A stretch of 63,998 nucleotides of DNA, filler included, from Basidiobolus ranarum (Eukaryota), in the NCBI GenBank assembly GCA_040143965.1. It is 3 parts of 3 records of this genome, joined end to end, with 100 filler letters (N's around TTAATTAATTAA, not from the genome) between each part and the next. Parts side by side here need not be neighbours in the genome. Positions count along the whole stretch, not along the records: positions 1 to 22,212 come from JASJQH010000190.1; 2 more parts are not named here. The stretch is one strand, 5' to 3'. This document shows, piece after piece, positions 1-44,621 of this stretch. The translations under genes and the position numbers were made by a program. How positions within the stretch are numbered: position 1 is the first letter of the stretch; each line of letters opens with the position of its first letter. The notes under the pieces were generated by a model that ran no database searches, was not told the DNA's origin, and saw only the letters and a program-made list of their open reading frames with translations.

Positions 1-160
1 TACATCCTCTGAGCTAGATTACATTGGTCATCAGGTTAAGTATGGATATGATTCAGTATTGTCACAATATCTTAAAAGATTGATGTCTTGATTGTCACTT
101 TGTTTAGATTAATATTTAAGCTAAATAAAGTCCACACCATCTGGTGCTTTTCATCCCCCT

Positions 161-334
161 AAACACATCAATATTAAGCATCACTTCATTAGAGAGACTA
201 TAGAGAATAAGTTTGTTGACTTAACTTATTGTTCTACAGACGACATGATTGCTGATATATTAACCAAACCATTAGCTAGACAGAAATTTGAGAAATTTAG
301 ACCCTTATTAGGATTAGTTTATATGACTATTTAG
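161..334 (+). mobile_element. Ty1/copia retrotransposon RNase H C-terminus (5'-truncated relic)
   Basis: Translates KHINIKHHFIRE...MIADILTKPLARQKFEKFRPLLGL*, the classic copia RNase H end, followed by polypurine tract TTGAGGGAGAG. Confidence 0.9.
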
Positions 335-1469: not shown

Positions 1470-3429
1470 CTAGTTTATGCGCTGATGGGAAAAATCAAGC
1501 ATTGTTTCCATTTTTCTGCCTGATTGTTTGTGGATAGCAACGAGCCGCAACTCAGTGAGTCCAAAATACATACTTACCTGGCACTCTTTATAATTCTGAT
1601 CTACTATGCAATCTGATGGATATGTTATCTTCAAACTTGCTAGCTCATGGCAACCTTCATCATCAGGGTAGCAGGGATGTTTCTCGGCGGTCGCATATAA
1701 TTTGAATTTGATTTGGCTTTGCGAGGGTATGAGAGGAACAAATGAGTGGGTTATAGACTCGTCCCTCTCAACCAGTTGTCCACTGCGAACAAAGACCGAG
1801 AGCACTTTAGTCATGTAGCAATGTTGTTCATCGCACCAGAACCTTTTTGATTTATCGTGGTGTATGGAATTAAATTTCTCGCTTGATCCTATTGCATATG
1901 TGAGCTTTGATTTGCGAGCTGTTACTATGGTTGGATCTAGGCCGCTAAGTACAGCCCCTTGAATGATGGCAGATCCTGGCTCAGAGATAGACAATATTTG
2001 TAGATGGTCTCTCTCGAACTCCCTTCGCAGGCAATGAAGTAAATACCTAGACTCGGCAAATCCACCAACAACAAGGAGATTTGAAGTGGTTATCTCCGCC
2101 TGGTCCAAATGCTCTGAAAGTGCCTTTACAAGTTTTTCAATAACCTTATCAAAGAACCCTTGTATAGTTTTCCCTGACAACCAGATAACATCGTCAAAGA
2201 ACTATGGGAAAACATCTCTCTTAGCTAAATTTAACTCTGTTCGAAGAAAGAATGGGGCTATTACCTCTTGATTTTCGGCCAAAGCACTCTTTTCTTCTTG
2301 TTTCATGCGCTTCTGCAATATATTTGGAAGAGAAATGACACCAAAATCCTGTTCGTCCAGTTTGGACCCGTCAAAGCTGCGCTTGATATTTTCCCACTCC
2401 CTAAGCAAAGATATTTCAATTGAAGGTGACTGCGTCAAGGCCACATCATACGCCTCGACTCCAACCATATTCTTAACATAGGCAAAGAAATAGCTGTCAA
2501 TGAACGTACTTCCTGCTAAAACGCCAGAGCTGGCGATGAGCTCGCTCATCTTTCCTCTATCCTGGATATTATACGTACTCATGTCGATAGTACCCCCTCC
2601 ACAATCACAAACACTTAAAGTATCACCAACTATTAACGGCTTTGCACCAGGAGTATGTCGAAGATAGACCGACGCTGCTTCTGGTTCGAGACAAATCAGC
2701 AGTCTATCAGATTCAAGGCTTTGGATCATTCCAACTGACAAGCAAGCCTGGCGCATTATGGACTTTGCTTTATCAGTCCAGATGGCTGGAACAGTTAAAC
2801 ACCTTAAAGTCAATGAGATTAGTCAAGCAAAGTAGATGTACTTATTTTTATTATCTGTACCAGAGAACATAATCCTCAGAAAAACTTCCACTGAACTTTG
2901 CGCGAAGAGCCTCAATAGCCAGATCTTTCATGTATTTTAGATAGTCAGCAATAACCACTTGTACAGTAGTTTTAGGCGGGAGGAGGATAGATTCCCTGCA
3001 GGAGGGATCCAACAAAAGTTTGAATTTCTCCACATAGAAATCATCATGTTCTAAGGGACGCCGCTGAAGGTAGATAGCCAGAGCATGGTATCCAAATGCT
3101 AAAGGTTTGTAGTCATCCTCGGCTGATACAAATTAGGACATGAGTGATAATTAAACCAAATTAGAACAAGAAGTGACTACCATCCCGCACATATAAGATA
3201 CTGGTTCTATCTTTGCAATATGGCTGAGGCTGCTTATTCCAGTTAAAGTTTGTCTTGACTATCTTGTCCACTCTATGGGCAAAGGCGTACCCAGAGTGTG
3301 TGGTCTATAGGATTCACAATTATCAGACGACTTGAATTGATAACCATTTAAAAGCATGCTTCTTACACCAAAGTCAATACCGATACAATATCTGGTTTCG
3401 GAAGCTCGTACATCAACTGTTGTATTCAT
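1470..3429 (-). CDS. HSPA12-type atypical Hsp70 (actin-like ATPase), 5 exons, ~572 aa
   Basis: Exons 3429-3367, 3304-3181, 3122-2861, 2802-2265 and 2201-1470 splice in frame through GT-AG introns; motifs GIDFGTTHSGYAF, WCLTVPAIW, LEPEAAS, DCGGGTID, LVVGGFAES. Confidence 0.9.
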
Positions 3430-3651
3430 GTCAATTTGCGAATTCAAACTAATGGGGACGAGCACCAACGGTATTAATAAACTTAATTTCCACGAACCGC
3501 AATACAGTGGCTAATACCAGTCACAAGATGGCTAAGCGTGATGTGTATGAATTATGATGACATGGGTATATCCATCCTTCCGTACTCCAGTTACTTCTGC
3601 TATATATTGCTGGTTTGGGATGTGGCAACCAGTGAATGAAAAAGACTCACC

Positions 3652-4875
3652 ATGCTCAATCAAATGCTCGGGCTAATATTCTCTAGCGTTGTTGATGATT
3701 CGCCCCCAAAAATAACGACTGAACAGCTGGAGAGATTCAGATGCGAATTAGAAACTTACATTGAGCTTTACGTAAAGCTTAGCAAAAGAGTAAACGAGTT
3801 GGAATCTTTGAACCTAGAACTGGCAAACAAGAAACAGGATATTAGTCTAGAGTTGATACAGGCTCAAGCAAAGATAGAAAATATGGCCACTTCCCACCGC
3901 ACTAGTTATAGTAGTGTTATCCAAAAAAACAGTTGGCTGCAAGAAAACCAGCAAAAGTGCTCTCTAAAAATGGCAGAGATCCAGAATCAGTTGCGATTAG
4001 CTAGTAACGAAAACAAAGTACTTCGTTTACAAGCAGAAGAATCCAAGCGCTTGAAGGGCATACATGAAAACATAGTTAAGCAGCTGGCCGAACTTGAAGC
4101 AAGGACTAGTATTCAGGATAACATCGATATTTCAGAATACGCTTTCAACATTAGTGAGGTACAAGCACACCTTGCCTCTGTGCGAACGGACATAGTAGGA
4201 GGCAAGCTGAACAGGTGCATTAGAAAAGGCATTAGGGCAAAAATTGATATTCTAGAATTCAGTCGCGTACACTTTACTGATCGCAAATACAAGACCGTCA
4301 AGTTAGCAAAGCCTATATTGGAACGATACGTCGCAGGGTATATACTTAACAGTGTGATTGAGAGCCTTCACGTGTCCTCATGGTTTCAGAAATTAATTCG
4401 CTTGGTAGACTTTCTTGCTGCTCAAGCTAAAAGTAAATGTGCTGCTTATCAGTTCATTAACGAACTTATTGATCAGGCAATCAAGGATAGTCAAGTGTTG
4501 CATATAACGGCGCTCCATGTAGCGACCGCCTTAAATTGGAATGACCTGTATTCGGAATTGATTCCTAGTATCAGTCCTCTTACCATTAAGGTTGTTCAGC
4601 TCCTCTGCGCTTCACGGCTTCTATCAGACAATATAGTAATAGTTGCCACCAAGTCAAATATATTTCAACGGTACGATTCCACATCGCAAACTCAAATTGG
4701 AGTTATTTTGTCCGCTCCTCATGTCACAGCTGATGAAGAAAATACAATGCTTGTATTTCAAAGCATTTGTCCTGGAATTATGCGCGGTACGGAAGTCATC
4801 GAACAAGAGGTTGTACTGATATGTGACATTAATGTTCTACCACAGTCACAAGTTGTACCAGCAACAATCCAATAA
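3652..4875 (+). CDS. Uncharacterised intronless coiled-coil protein with possible GrpE/MIEAP-like C-terminal beta head
   Basis: 407-aa ORF; heptad-rich N-terminal ~150 aa; C-terminus LVFQSICPGIMRGTEVIEQEVVL; divergent from the Hsp70 gene. Confidence 0.75.
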   Translation: MLNQMLGLIFSSVVDDSPPKITTEQLERFRCELETYIELYVKLSKRVNELESLNLELANKKQDISLELIQAQAKIENMATSHRTSYSSVIQKNSWLQENQQKCSLKMAEIQNQLRLASNENKVLRLQAEESKRLKGIHENIVKQLAELEARTSIQDNIDISEYAFNISEVQAHLASVRTDIVGGKLNRCIRKGIRAKIDILEFSRVHFTDRKYKTVKLAKPILERYVAGYILNSVIESLHVSSWFQKLIRLVDFLAAQAKSKCAAYQFINELIDQAIKDSQVLHITALHVATALNWNDLYSELIPSISPLTIKVVQLLCASRLLSDNIVIVATKSNIFQRYDSTSQTQIGVILSAPHVTADEENTMLVFQSICPGIMRGTEVIEQEVVLICDINVLPQSQVVPATIQ

Positions 4876-5504: not shown

Positions 5505-7923
5505 ATGTTATCTTTCAATAGAATAGTCAAAGGAGGCAAGTGTTTAACAGTTGGTTGCAACATTCTTCGCCCTAAGCACTCGAAGATATCCTCCGTTTTA
5601 CCTTTCCAACACTCTGCCTTTACTTTTTCTAGACTTTCACGTTCCGTGACCACTCTCACTTCTGATATAGAGGCTCAACACTATGCTGACCACAAAGCTC
5701 CAGTGTGTCAGCTAGAAATCCGAAATCACTTTGAATTATTACAGGAAAAAGAAAAGCGTTATGCACACCATATCAGTCGAGCCAGTTGGTACGGGGCGCG
5801 TGTTTTATTGGCACAAACTACTAAAGATAGTGAAAATATTTATGATTTTATTATCTCTTTATTTAAAGAGGAAAAGAACAATCAGATGGTTGCGTTGGAC
5901 CAGTTACAACAAAAAAGTGGTGTTGACACAGAGACGTTCCAACATTGGCTTCAATATTCCGGGCAGTTTCTTGGAAATATGGGGAATTACAAATCCTTTG
6001 GAGATACAAAGTTCATTCCTCGAATCTCTGAAGCAGCCCTTGAAGCCATTGTTAAAGCAAGAGGCAGTCAACGCGTTACAGACTTGTTTAATTCTGTTAA
6101 ACAAAACATATTTTCTGTCACCCCAGCATCCAAAAACCTACTCGGCTATGTTGACGATGGCCATGTTTCAAACTATTACTCCGAAAATGTAACCAAAAAT
6201 GACATCCTGGAAGTTCAGAAGTTTCTAGAATCCATCGAAGTAGATTCACTCAATACCAGGTGATTTTCATTATTGGTATACAGATACAGATAGCTGGTTG
6301 ACACTAACGCTTATTCGAAAATTAACTATATAGACTATTCAAAATTTCTGAAACAGAATTCGAAGTGAAGGTGGCCTCAGCTATAGTAAAAGACCCCGAG
6401 GTTCACAGAACAAATCAAGGCAAAACCATTAAAATAGTTTACGGTGATCACCACGTTAGCATGAAAAAAATTGCCAAAGAGATACAAGCCGCCATCGAAT
6501 ATGCTGCTAATGACGATCAACGTTTGATGTTGGAAAAGTATGCAGAGAGCTTTACGACTGGCTCTATATCTGCGCACAAGGAATCTCAGAAATACTGGAT
6601 TAATGATGTAGGCCCCACCGTAGAGTCTAACATCGGGTTCATTGAGACCTATCGTGACCCAGCAGGCATTCGTGCCGAGTGGGAAGGGTTCGTTGCAATG
6701 GTCAACAAAGATCGTACGAAGAAGTTTGGGGTATTGGTGGATAACGCAGAGCGTTTTATTTCTAAATTACCTTGGTAAGTAGTATTTTGTAAGCATGGAT
6801 TTTCCACTACAACTTCTCACATCTCATTCAAGGGGTGCTGACTATGAAAAGGATAGCTTCCACAAACCTGACTTTACTTCGTTGGAGGTAATGTCGTTTG
6901 CTACTGGGGGGATTCCAGCTGGTAAGCTAATCACGATGTGGTTCAGAAATGCATTTAATTTAAAGTTTGTATCATATAGGCATCAACATCCCTAATTACG
7001 ACGATATTCGAGAATACTATGGTTTCAAGAATGTAAGCTTAGGTAATGTCTTGAACGCGAAATCCTCCAATGAGAAATATCCCTTTCTCAATGAAGCTGA
7101 TCGTATCCTGTATGAGAAGCTGAAAGGGCCTTCTTTTGAGGTTCAGGTTGGCATTCACGAACTTCTAGGTCATGGCTCAGGAAAGTTACTAGCTGAGCAA
7201 GAGCAAGGGAAATACAACTTTGACATTAATAATCCTCCCATATCACCAATTACCAAAAGTCCCATCACCACTTGGTATAAGCCCGGAGAAACTTGGGGAT
7301 CTGTGTTCAAAAATATCGCTTCATCTTACGAAGAATGCCGTGCAGAATCGGTGGCTCTTTACCTGTCCACTGACAAGGATGCGTTGAAAGTATTCGGTCA
7401 TACAGATATCAGCCACGAGATAGGATTAGCCGATGATATCATGTATGTAGGATGGCTATCAATGGTGCGAGCTGGTCTTCTTGGATTAGAGTTCTACAAT
7501 CCAACCGTCAAGAAGTGGGGACAAGCCCATATGATGGCACGCTACGCCATATTGCGAGTGCTACTTGAGGCAGGACAAGACTTCGTTAAAATTGAACGAA
7601 ATACCGATGACACTGATGCAATCATCACTTTGGACCGTGGTAAAATCATGAGCGTGGGAATGCCTGCCATGCATACCTTCTTACAAAAGATTCAAGTGTA
7701 CAAGGCTACCGCAGATTTCGAAGCAGGATCTGCTTTATATGCGGAAATGACTCGTGTTCCAGAAGATTGGAATACTCTACGTGATATTGTCATATCTCAT
7801 AAGCAACCCAGAAAGTTGTTTGTTCAAGCAAATACCGTACTCGAAGGAGATACCGTGGCAATGAAGGAATACCCAGCCACCGTTGAGGGCATCGTTCAGT
7901 CATTTGTGGAGCGCAGTATATAA
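5505..7923 (+). CDS. DPP3: Dipeptidyl peptidase III (peptidase M49), 4 exons
   Basis: Zinc motifs HELLGH and EECRAE, plus [11 protein letters not shown]; exons 5505-6259, 6334-6774, 6833-6921, 6980-7923. Confidence 0.96.
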
Positions 7924-8861
7924 TATAAATCGAAAAGGGAAGAGAGCAAGTATATAAAGAGTATCAAAAACCATAAGAAGCTTCAATGGACCAATGATTT
8001 GTTTGAAACAATGTTGATTAACGTTTGCATCAATAATGATAAAATGACAAGAATGCATGGATCCGAATATTGATTTATTTTAGGGTTCTATGCGCTTAAT
8101 AAGAAGCGACTTACTTTATATGGCTACCATCAATAAGAGTCCAGTAACGCTTTTGTAGGTTTTCGGTAGGCCCGTCATTTGCTTCTTACAACAATAGAAT
8201 GATGCCATCTTATTGTGGTTTTAGTGGCGATTAAACAAATGTAGAAGATAACGGCATCCGTTACAGTGACGATACTTTAGAATTCACTTGCATGCACAAA
8301 CGCAATAAACACATAGATATATATATAATGATCACTCGGGGGCAGATACGCCTGCACAACAATGCTCAAATATTTAACAATAAAGGGGTAGTGGATTGAG
8401 TAGTAATTGGAATTTACCGACGATCTGCTTTTCTTAGTGCTTGTCCATCGTAGAGTCCTCAATGTTTTATTTCCATTTTAAGGGGATCCTCGTGAGTTAG
8501 CATATACAGATGGCTATTGACTGTTTGTTATAAGACAAACTCTCTAATCGATCTACAAGTAAACCTCTCTCTCTTTCTTTCTCTTTCTTTGGCAAGAGCT
8601 TGGCTAATTGTCATTTCATGAAACAGCAATAAATCTATGCTGATTCTCCACCATTTAGTCCAGCATAGTAAGTTTATTGGCGTTCATAATAATTACTGAC
8701 AAGATCCGTTCAAGGTTTCACTTCATTATTCTACTTAATAATAACCATTGTGTAACGCATTGGTGTTGATCGTCTGTACCTTATATAAATATCCAGTCTG
8801 GACGCCATTCGAAGACAACAAACACAGCGTCTTTCTAATTTACCTGAATTACTTCTGAAGT

Positions 8862-11800
8862 ATGTCTTCTGTTATTTCCAAATTACATGAAAGCCAGAGC
8901 TGTGAAGAGGAATGTGATTCAATTTCCCTGTCTAGAAAAGAGCAACAACTGATTAAACGAGATCTACTTGCTCGACAAATTCATGGCGAAATAGATAGAT
9001 TTAGAAGCACACTCTCACTTAATCACCTTGTTCACGATCAGTCTCTACTACAACCACTAGCCGACTCTAGAAATCATTTTTTTTTACATTTCCTTAATAG
9101 AAAGCGTGACTCCTCTTTAGACCTTACCAAAACTAATTCCGACATAGATGTTTCCTTATTACCAGCGAGATACGATGATACTCCTCTATTAAGGTTCGCC
9201 TTTACTCAATTCGTGTTGACTTTTCCTTTTCTCAAAGGAGTCAATCCAAATTTCTGGCCCAAGATACAACAATTTCTACAAGCCTTTAACGAGCATCGAT
9301 CTGGAACCCGGTCAATAGACCCAAAACGAAATAGGAAGCAAGATAAAATTGCCTCAAAACTTGAGAAAATTTTAGTTTTATTATTCAACACTGGGATACC
9401 AACCAGTATTGAGAATTCGGTACCAACAAAATCTAAACAGAAGACTACTCCAAAAGAAACCCCGACCATCAAATCGAACTCTCTGTCCAACAGCCCTGAA
9501 CACCTTCCATTCGTGGAGATAGTCTCTGTTAGGCGGCAAGTCAAGAAGACATTCCTTATTCAGAAAGAAAAAGCGGTAAATCACTTGAGAAAATATGATT
9601 TTGTTTGCCTAAACTCACCTTCGCAATTCATATTTAAATATCAGATGTTTATCGTCAAATGCAGTTTGCCTGATTGGGAAGGAGATTTATACGTTCTACG
9701 AAGCTACTCTCAGTTCACCAGATACTTTAACCAAGTAAGCACATTGAATAGTCACCTATGAGGTAGAATGAGACAGAATTCCGTTCTAAATATTCAACTC
9801 TAGATTAGACACGCTTTCCCTACTTTTGAACTACCTTCTCCTCCTCCTAAATTCAAGAACGCATCACAAGACATCTATTTCCGTGAAAAAGATCGGATTT
9901 CACTACAGAATTATATACGGAATATTCTGAGGAATCCATTGATACTGCAATCTCAAGCAACCAGGAATTTCTTAACCTTTACGCCCATTGAAATGGAAGA
10001 GGATGATCTCTTTGATATTGAAAGAAGAAAACAGCACATGACTAATAGGAATCACGAGTACCAAAAAATTATGCGAATGACCGAAGAAAAGGCTGAAGAG
10101 CTAAAAGAGACTATTGGACAGTTTAAGAAAGAATTGCTTCACGAAGGTAAGTTCATAATTATAGAGATCATCAATTAAGAGATAAATGCGAGTAATTCTT
10201 TTAGGTGGATTCAAATCATTTTCCGATACACTTCATGATATCCCAAACATCTCTGGGTTACCTTCGCACTATCGAAAGCTCATCGAATTATTTACTATAA
10301 AGTAAGAGTGAACAATCCTTTGGGCAATTGATCATCACTAATGTATCTTCTTGGGGCCATAGCTTTGCATTCACGCTATATAGAGTCTTTTGTGCGGATG
10401 ATAGTGCTACCTGTAATTTTCATCAACTGAAGCAAACACACAGTTTGATTCCATATCGGACACTGGGTGGTATTTTGAGAATTGCAAACCCTACGATCAT
10501 GATGAAAGGAGTGTTGGATTTATTTCTTGCGCAGCCTTTCGGGCAACCTAGTATACTTCAGAGGTATTCCACACTAATCTTTCATTATTGAACTTGAGCC
10601 CTTACTAAAGATATTTCATCAGAGCGGTATCAATTAACCTTAACGAATCAATCAGTCGGAAGAAAGAAGAGATTAAACGGATCGAAGGGACAATATCAGA
10701 AATAGCTTTATGTGAGAAAGTCCACAACTACATATATTTGAGTGAGAATCCCAAATGGGATAACGAACAAGGTATATCATATCTCTCCACTACACTACTT
10801 TTGCCTAGATATTGGCTGATCCTGTCTTTCTAGTTGAAAACGACCTAGATCGTCTCATACAAGCTATTCTGGATCCGAATATTTCCCCTCCAATCACCCC
10901 TGAAACTGGTCTAATTCTTTCTGAGTCTCTCAAGTACTTGAAAGAGGCGAACCTGGTAGATTCTCTAATGAATTTAGCAATCAGTGGAAGTAATGAAGAT
11001 TCAGACATAGATGAGAAGATGTGTTCTTACGGGGAGAATGAAATGACTCTTAAGAAGTTGTACAGAATTATGATATTACACGGGCAAATCCGAGAAACTG
11101 AGAATGTCATCAAACTTGTATTTGAGGTTAGTTGAAAAACGTCGAGTATTCACTCTGGTCTGATTTGTTTCTTAGCTAAACCTCACATGTATACTAAATC
11201 TTAGGGAGTCACTGGTGAGCTCCTTAAAGAGATTCTTACCATATTCTATCAGCCTTTAGCTCAGATATATAAGGTAAGAGCACGATTAACTAGGATACAC
11301 CACTAAATACTAAAATGTTTGTTACAGGATGCAAATATAAGTGACTTCATCACAAGTTCATCGAAGTTTATCGAAGATCTTATTAAAGTAGTAGAAGAAA
11401 CGAACCGTAGCCCAGGTAAATAAATTGAAGTACCAACTCTCAAAGCACAATAACTGATCTGTAGTTATAGATCATTCAGCAATAGATACACTGAAAAGAT
11501 TCACAAAACTGGTCGAGTCCCATCAAGAGATCTTTTATCAATTCGTCCACTCGCTTTACAAACAACGACGCGATGGCTTATTTCAACAACTAATCGGTTG
11601 GTTCGAACACATTCTCGGCACTTTGCGAGATGGCATTGTTTCGGAAGCAATTGATTTAGAAGATATAATTAGAACCAATATAGAAGCAACTGAGAATACT
11701 GAGTTTCAAGCCGAGGTGCATACCCTGAAGGAATATACCTTCCGTACTAAACTTCGCCAATTTCGAAAATTAACTCAGAAGATGTTGGCAAACACTGAAC

Positions 11801-22212: not shown

Positions 22213-22312
22213 NNNNNNNNNNNNNNNNNNNNNNNNNNNNNNNNNNNNNNNNNNNNTTAATTAATTAANNNNNNNNNNNNNNNNNNNNNNNNNNNNNNNN
22301 NNNNNNNNNNNN
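22213..22312. other. Artificial contig-joining spacer (N44-TTAATTAATTAA-N44)
   Basis: Exactly 100 nt with a six-frame stop linker; identical to 44522-44621. Confidence 0.97.
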
Positions 22313-44521: not shown

Positions 44522-44621
44522 NNNNNNNNNNNNNNNNNNNNNNNNNNNNNNNNNNNNNNNNNNNNTTAATTAATTAANNNNNNNNNNNNNNNNNNNNNNN
44601 NNNNNNNNNNNNNNNNNNNNN
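44522..44621. other. Artificial contig-joining spacer
   Basis: N44-TTAATTAATTAA-N44. Confidence 0.97.

Follow-up and report, generated by a model that had tools for sequence, protein, structure and literature searches.

Does the head-to-head gene pair at positions 1470 to 4875 of a stretch of Basidiobolus ranarum DNA encode an HSPA12-type Hsp70 together with its own exchange factor, or do two unrelated genes simply lie side by side? The stretch (the window, 63,998 nucleotides from assembly GCA_040143965.1) consists of three contigs joined by N runs (22213-22312 and 44522-44621), and the first 22,212 bases alone, from JASJQH010000190.1, are physically linked to the pair. The HSPA12-type Hsp70s range from bacteria to humans, with a massive expansion in bivalves. 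We know of no cofactor for vertebrate HSPA12A/HSPA12B, and to our knowledge no nucleotide-exchange factor has been described for HSPA12-type Hsp70s. An earlier note on this DNA had proposed a dedicated two-gene Hsp70/cofactor module. Our analysis found such a module in bacterial relatives of the Hsp70, and for the fungus we infer one: a diverged Hsp70/exchange-factor pair would be the best single explanation of the locus, and we give it an even chance of being correct. The pair consists of the following features.

1470..3429, minus strand: gene for an HSPA12-type Hsp70-superfamily ATPase, five exons, 572 amino acids
3429-3367, 3304-3181, 3122-2861, 2802-2265 and 2201-1470 (stop included), minus strand: the five Hsp70 exons of the splice model
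1470..1577, minus strand: true 3' end of the Hsp70 coding region, judged from read-through, which gives VSMYFGLTELRLVAIHKQSGRKMETMLDFS
3430..3651, no strand: divergent spacer between the two start codons, 222 bp, G+C content (GC) 0.41, read from the sequence
3652..4875, plus strand: single-exon open reading frame (ORF) with coding-like codon statistics, encoding a 407-amino-acid lineage-specific coiled-coil protein, the candidate Hsp70 partner

The two genes of the pair

The Hsp70 gene runs from a minus-strand ATG at 3429 to a stop at 1470 and is interrupted by four GT..AG introns of 62, 58, 58 and 63 nt. Its product is the deposited B. ranarum protein K7432_005075 (543 amino acids), identical to residue 537 and different at the 3' end, where the deposited model splices from a GTAAGT at 1577 and finishes with KNGNNA. 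When the site is instead read as coding, the result is VSMYFGLTELRLVAIHKQSGRKMETMLDFS, which agrees with the family consensus VxMxFGxTEIxVxAxDxxSGxxxxxxLxFS in 12 of 12 aligned relatives. Because read-through restores this conserved C-terminal motif, we conclude from the alignment that the deposited 3' end is in error and that the 572-residue product is correct.

Relatives of the Hsp70 are numerous (430 at E <= 0.001 among 8,000 scored candidates) and distant. The closest, at just 31-35% identity, are JGI, ENA and Logan proteins together with cyanobacterial ones from Stigonema, Calothrix and Scytonema; proteins from green algae, a moss and Phycomyces rank next, followed by many animal relatives named HSPA12A/HSPA12B, 26-30% identical over 93-97% of the length. 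The protein narrowly passes the Pfam HSP70 model (24.3 bits against a cut-off of 20.6) and reaches 17-43 bits on the DnaK and HscA NCBIfam models, whose cut-offs are 620-1002. Invariant columns in a 56-sequence alignment include D19 G21 T22, E189 P190 E191, D216 G218-220 T221 D223 and G375 G376, which we take to be the phosphate-1, phosphate-2 and adenosine motifs. A noncanonical C-terminal domain ending FGxTE...SG...F is present only given the read-through 3' end (1577-1470). Based on these relatives, the model scores and the C-terminal motif, the gene at 3429-1470 is an HSPA12-type Hsp70 with intact ATPase motifs, as the earlier note had named it.

In a quick maximum-likelihood (ML) tree, the window Hsp70 grouped with its closest relative, P0003 (support 99), within a clade of Phycomyces, green algae and a moss (support 99) that is separate from the bacterial and animal groups. 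This tree was midpoint rooted, has several long branches, and comes from a run whose careful search was unfinished. We considered a recent transfer of the Hsp70 from cyanobacteria or other bacteria and rejected it on this position in a eukaryotic clade. Identity to the bacterial Hsp70s is 32-37%. Metagenome scans with P0003 and with the last Hsp70 exon returned no related locus, and no fused MIEAP or GrpE domain was present in the longer HSPA12-like proteins (seven of 789-948 amino acids and two of 680-693).

The partner ORF opens with a plus-strand ATG at 3652 and continues to 4875. At the local composition, 411 open codons have a chance of about 1e-12, which rises to about 4e-8 when the whole contig is considered. 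The three codon positions have GC values of 0.50/0.32/0.40, compared with 0.50/0.37/0.42 for the Hsp70 gene; the in-frame codon score exceeds that of all five other frames, and codon usage resembles that of neighbouring genes in the correct frame only. The length of the open frame, the codon-position GC and the codon usage therefore argue that the ORF is not a chance frame. That it is instead a decaying or never-expressed frame, as the lack of a homologue in either protein search might suggest, is highly improbable given the same open-frame length and the gene-like composition confined to the correct frame. Both genes of the head-to-head pair are real.

The two ATGs are separated by 222 bp, just as the earlier note had counted. 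This spacer holds a single TATA-like word, at 3601, and the heat-shock element core GAAnnTTC was not found between 3430 and 3651. Presumably the spacer serves as a shared promoter region. No paralogues or repeats of either gene are present in the window.

Bacterial relatives of the Hsp70 and their GrpE-like partners

A search with the Stigonema relative found eight loci, in cyanobacteria and in three metagenome-assembled genomes (MAGs): one of Flavobacteriaceae, one of Thiotrichaceae and one unclassified bacterium. One locus ends inside the Hsp70 gene and was left out of the count. In the other seven, without exception, a co-directional ORF of 401-610 amino acids starts 1-171 bp after the Hsp70 stop and encodes a coiled coil followed by a conserved C-terminal domain ending ...ADPPGxLWIEKEGxxFxSDxHEAxLGCEExGKIxxTVYPGYxVGxRVFEKALVFT. 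Three of three Streptomyces loci have an ORF of 222-245 amino acids with a similar tail, 0-12 bp after the Hsp70 stop. The partner family was thus found behind an HSPA12-like Hsp70 in all 10 bacterial loci reached via the Hsp70. The earlier note had held that its proposal would fail if there were no GrpE-like structural match, no predicted interface and no recurrence of the pairing; recurrence was found in bacteria, and the structural match is present only as sub-threshold leads, described below.

The association also held when approached from the partner side. A profile of the partner domain (A4) matched 6 of 401 sampled cyanobacterial genomes, the source genome among them. Of the five other matches, four are partner genes with an HSPA12-like Hsp70 immediately upstream, and the fifth is a canonical grpE in front of dnaK. 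In Pseudomonadota and Bacteroidota (401 genomes each), three canonical grpE genes were all that matched outside the source genomes. Pfam confirmed the cyanobacterial grpE and two of these three as GrpE, and the A4 profile scores canonical GrpE at about 20 bits in four genomes. Comparing A4 with four canonical GrpE sequences by hhalign gave a probability of 94.6 and an E value of 6.7e-8 over 80 columns of the GrpE beta wing. A4 matched no GrpE chain among PDB sequences at E <= 10, and the GrpE link of the bacterial partner rests on hhalign and these genome matches. Streptomyces partners gave no match to GrpE directly and matched the cyanobacterial-type profile A4 with an E value of 8.7e-5. Based on these profile comparisons, the bacterial HSPA12-like ATPase comes with its own coiled-coil partner, whose wing is homologous to that of GrpE.

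The bacterial partners also resemble MIEAP. Three of the seven whole proteins gave weak hits on the C-terminal half of the Pfam MIEAP model (best E value 0.017), and the partner domain alone gave E values of 0.0052 and 0.012. The partner gene was the best genome-wide match to the MIEAP model in two of five genomes, below the cut-off; among control genomes, 3 of 14 had a MIEAP match at E <= 1 and none exceeded the cut-off.

Partner sequences change quickly. In bacterial pairs whose Hsp70s are 42-47% identical, the Smith-Waterman scores between partners are just 40-190, and judged by these scores the partners diverge far faster than their ATPases. At that rate, a fungal orthologue of the partners would be expected to lie beyond the reach of sequence methods. 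Against a profile of the cyanobacterial core, a Streptomyces partner in the orthologous position scored 0.9 bits, compared with 1.6 bits for the fungal tail.

Several bacterial loci hold more than the two genes. The module in the Stigonema MAG (L001:959-12224, with similar ones in L002, L003 and L005) is larger than a pair: it includes a WD40 protein, a double AAA+ ATPase with weak IetA/TRIP13-like PADLOC hits, and a Zn-ribbon and coiled-coil protein whose gene end overlaps the start of the HSPA12-like Hsp70. Besides the GrpE-like partner, this cyanobacterial module also includes a second Hsp70-like ATPase (536 amino acids) and an SMC-like coiled-coil ORF of 358 amino acids. One cyanobacterial copy, L023 (G279:C1:1910000-1925000), looks broken at about 7100-9850, with the Hsp70 match in two frames and a TGA in the partner match. 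In three other cyanobacterial partners (L022:6330-8120, minus strand; L024:6424-8316 and L025:6365-8338, plus strand), an extension of about 130-180 residues follows the wing, so that the wing is not always terminal. The Streptomyces loci share a conserved ORF of 396-401 amino acids ending ...RSTMRSLGW, with its stop 4-6 bp before the Hsp70 match (L033:2791-3996, L034:2804-3994 and L035:2803-3996), which may be a third component.

The fungal ORF as a possible diverged partner

The fungal protein has three recognizable parts.

3718..4104 (residues 23-151), plus strand: N-terminal coiled coil of two long helices (H23-81 and H89-151), from a single-sequence AlphaFold model, with a predicted local distance difference test score (pLDDT) of 50-78
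4150..4614 (residues 167-321), plus strand: helical middle, from AlphaFold secondary structure, at low confidence
4744..4830 (residues 365-393), plus strand: tail motif TMLVFQSICPGIMRGTEVIEQEVVLICDI, the sole stretch matching the GrpE-like wing of the bacterial partners

This layout of coiled coil, helical middle and strand-rich tail is the one the earlier note had read from the sequence, and it agrees with the AlphaFold secondary structure, which places strands at 337-392; pLDDT reaches 50-78 in the coiled coil only and is below 50 from residue 148 on. The order of elements fits GrpE-like helices followed by a beta wing, in that low-pLDDT part of the model. Layout and size are shared with the bacterial partners: coiled coil, helical part and C-terminal strands in 407 amino acids, compared with 401-610 in bacteria.

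Profile comparison points to the same end of the protein. When the fungal ORF was aligned to the bacterial partners by hhalign, the single reported match paired its tail (residues 365-396, VFQSICPGIMRGTEVIEQEVVL) with the final part of the wing, TVYPGYxVGxRVFEKALVFT. E values were 0.072 with alignment A2, 0.015 with a 10-sequence domain alignment, 0.069 with A4 and 0.025 with a 17-sequence wing alignment; the tail was the top match, over 23-30 columns, in all four alignments holding cyanobacterial-type partners. In HMMER, composition-preserving shuffles scored as well as the tail in 33 of 3000 (p 0.011) and 80 of 5000 (p 0.016) cases. hhalign controls gave E values of 0.5 for the Zn-ribbon coiled-coil family encoded upstream (A3) and 0.47 for the four canonical GrpE sequences, both in other regions of the protein. 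The Streptomyces trio alone (A8) gave no match to the tail (E value 0.4, in another region). The GrpE signature is F-x-P-x-x-H-x-A ... G-Y-x-x-x-x-R-V-x-R-x-A-x-V, and the fungal protein holds a look-alike of its second half only, PGIMRGTEVIEQEVVL.

Language-model searches added sub-threshold leads. The ESM Atlas contains an entry identical to the partner letter for letter, whose model has a predicted template modelling score (pTM) of 0.51 and a pLDDT of 0.65. Searching with the structure of residues 150-407, a stretch that includes the helical middle, returned a MIEAP cluster (TM score 0.57 by query and 0.37 by row, 194 residues aligned), an unannotated Mucoromycota cluster (TM 0.64, 228 aligned) and three GrpE clusters (TM 0.29-0.34 by query, 0.37-0.46 by row). 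In the feature search, MIEAP clusters reached 0.88 and 0.85, a cluster with 44% GIL1_IRKI_C members 0.86, and an unannotated Mucoromycota cluster 0.91, with 170 shared features. Feature scores below 0.9 serve as leads only, and the structure and feature searches count as one source. MIEAP, GIL1/IRKI and GrpE are the three families that the earlier note had named from the sequence alone.

Based on the tail match, the shared layout, these neighbours and the context of the Hsp70 in bacteria, the fungal ORF probably belongs to the GrpE-like (MIEAP-like) partner family of HSPA12-type Hsp70s as a very diverged member. Its product would dimerize through the N-terminal coiled coil, and the C-terminal strand-rich wing would dock on the nucleotide-binding domain of the ATPase and open the nucleotide cleft. 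Release of ADP would be sped up, as GrpE does for DnaK, and the partner may in addition anchor the ATPase at a site or on a client. Homology to the bacterial partners, binding, exchange-factor activity and co-regulation of both genes through the spacer are all part of what we infer. Complex prediction with ATPase residues 1-412 and partner residues 150-407 scored 0.00 in two runs, made without controls and with the supplied alignment unused, a result that speaks neither for nor against binding.

The main rival is that the two genes are chance neighbours, the partner being an unrelated lineage-specific coiled-coil protein (structural or scaffold, for example) whose tail and Atlas likenesses are noise. 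We consider this a serious possibility, if somewhat short of even, and a series of results favours it and weighs against an exchange-factor pair. The fungal ORF gave no significant profile match to the C-terminal domain of the bacterial partners, and is an orphan in every sequence search: it matched only itself among 7,999 scored candidates of a word-indexed search of 5.8 billion clusters and in an exhaustive phmmer search of 1.84 billion representatives, and PDB sequences held nothing below an E value of 0.34. No Pfam family came near its cut-off for the whole protein, the tail alone had no Pfam hit at E <= 10, and neither the full-length protein nor its C-terminal half or tail hit GrpE (PF01025) at E <= 10. 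MIEAP (PF16026) was absent at E <= 1 for the whole protein and at E <= 10 for three parts scanned separately; no hit to GIL1_IRKI_C (PF24994) appeared in the Pfam scan, in a Pfam copy where the presence of this model is unconfirmed.

Over the whole domain, alignment scores equal those of shuffles. With a full-domain hidden Markov model (HMM), 1162 of 3000 shuffles scored above the real fungal sequence; Smith-Waterman and semi-global scores, summed over 10 partner domains, gave z values of -0.5 to 1.5 and were matched or exceeded by 90-662 of 1000 shuffles, and in summed pairwise alignment the reversed fungal sequence scored about equal to the forward one. The tail match itself has a p value of about 0.01-0.04 and hhalign probabilities of 0.8-3%, and the conserved F..(D/S)..HEA half of the wing lacks a clear counterpart in the fungal protein. 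No confident fold was obtained by AlphaFold: pLDDT was 44 from the single sequence and 41 with the bacterial partners as alignment, and 29-38 in the tail with the bacterial domains as alignment. Every Atlas row is under the tool's bar or below 0.9 and a lead only, and the top feature matches, to unannotated Ascomycota clusters and a "MEI5 protein" cluster (0.91-0.92), are at a level that shuffled proteins reach 4-10 times per 100. In gene order, the fungal pair is divergent and the bacterial pairs are co-directional, and head-to-head neighbours are common in compact fungal genomes. Since the fungal Hsp70 falls in a eukaryotic clade, the bacterial operons are distant analogies.

If the genes were chance neighbours, however, the match in layout and length to the bacterial partners would be a coincidence. 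The sole profile match would by accident have picked out the wing motif, in the corresponding C-terminal position, and the Atlas would have returned GrpE and MIEAP, which the bacterial partner sequence also matches, plus GIL1/IRKI. The ORF would also happen to lie next to the only type of Hsp70 with partners of this sort. Our confidence in an exchange-factor pair is about even; the case is built on the genomic context of distant relatives, a single marginal match to a motif, and language-model neighbours that are sub-threshold. For the GrpE/MIEAP-like tail that the earlier note had described, Pfam and hhalign against GrpE were negative, and the Atlas neighbours and the wing match lean in its favour, leaving it neither shown nor refuted.

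The earlier note had also suggested an immune or allorecognition-type sensor-effector pair. The partner is extremely fast evolving and lineage specific, a retroelement-like fragment lies nearby, and the cyanobacterial modules adjoin WD40, AAA+ (weak IetA-like hits) and SMC-like coiled-coil genes, and these points speak for such a pair. Pfam scans, however, turned up no death or effector domain such as HET, HeLo, NACHT/NB-ARC, TIR or patatin in either fungal protein. Both fungal proteins also went without a PADLOC hit, and by PADLOC and NCBIfam neither the bacterial Hsp70 nor its partner is known as part of a defence system. With neither gene having paralogues or repeats in the window as well, the suggestion drew no support from our analysis, and we regard an immune role as quite improbable.

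Known systems, wider meaning and setting of the locus

One of the closest known parallels to the fungal locus is DnaK-GrpE (PF00012 and PF01025). In both, the gene for an Hsp70-fold ATPase accompanies one for a long-helix or coiled-coil protein with a small C-terminal strand-rich domain, and this domain is demonstrably GrpE-like in the bacterial partners. Unlike DnaK, the fungal ATPase is of the HSPA12 type, with its noncanonical C-terminal domain ending FGxTE and scores far under the DnaK cut-offs. The fungal partner is twice the size of GrpE, fails both Pfam GrpE and direct hhalign, and lacks the F..P..H.A half of the signature. The fungal pair also has no adjacent J-protein gene, and is divergent rather than co-transcribed.

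Compared with the bacterial HSPA12-like modules (A2/A4 and A8), the fungal locus shares the ATPase family, the size and layout of the partner and the wing-motif match; it differs in that the profile match is nonsignificant, the genes are head to head, and the Hsp70 lies in the eukaryotic clade. MIEAP/SPATA18 and GIL1/IRKI also combine a coiled coil with a C-terminal domain and are Atlas neighbours of the fungal protein, and the weak hits of the bacterial partners fall on the same C-terminal part of the MIEAP model. The fungal protein differs in having no Pfam MIEAP match at E <= 10, and all of these similarities are sub-threshold. Vertebrate HSPA12A/HSPA12B belong to the same ATPase family, but are just 26-30% identical and fall in a different clade.

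A 2026 review calls the function of HspA12 "presently unknown" (PMC13580251). In the open-access literature, we found no paper that connects a GrpE-like factor with HSPA12, or either GrpE or Hsp70 with MIEAP or GIL1/IRKI. A dedicated GrpE-like partner would give the HSPA12 family a testable biochemical cycle. The bacterial operons make that case well, and confirmation of the fungal pair would carry it over to fungi; the sub-threshold likeness to MIEAP and GIL1/IRKI would then point to candidate partners in animals and plants.

The boldest thread is the MIEAP connection, which is drawn from the weak Pfam hits of the bacterial partners and from what the Atlas places near the fungal protein. One GrpE-like exchange factor dedicated to HSPA12-type Hsp70s might be the common ancestor of the fungal ORF, animal MIEAP/SPATA18, plant GIL1/IRKI and the bacterial partners alike, a proposal we consider doubtful. 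If it were true, HSPA12 proteins would be one half of an ancient two-protein machine spanning bacteria to animals, with the Basidiobolus pair as its fungal form, and the cellular roles described for MIEAP would run through HSPA12A/B. If the fungal ORF is unrelated, the locus is an ordinary gene pair, and a corrected gene model and one more orphan gene remain.

Three further features lie on the same contig.

125..334, plus strand: 69-codon open frame at the contig end, 1.1 kb beyond the Hsp70 stop, from the ORF list; carries KHINIKHHFIRETIENKFVDLTYCSTDDMIADILTKPL
5505-7923, plus strand: multi-exon dipeptidyl-peptidase III gene, downstream neighbour, with Peptidase_M49 pieces at 5505-6260, 6461-6775 and 7441-7920
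8862-9761, plus strand: gene for a PXB-domain protein, downstream neighbour, from its Pfam domain

The frame at 125-334 may be the C-terminal end of a copia-type retroelement Pol; a Pfam scan of it gave no hit. It is the only candidate for the retroelement debris that the earlier note had placed directly beside the pair, a description that is loose at this distance.

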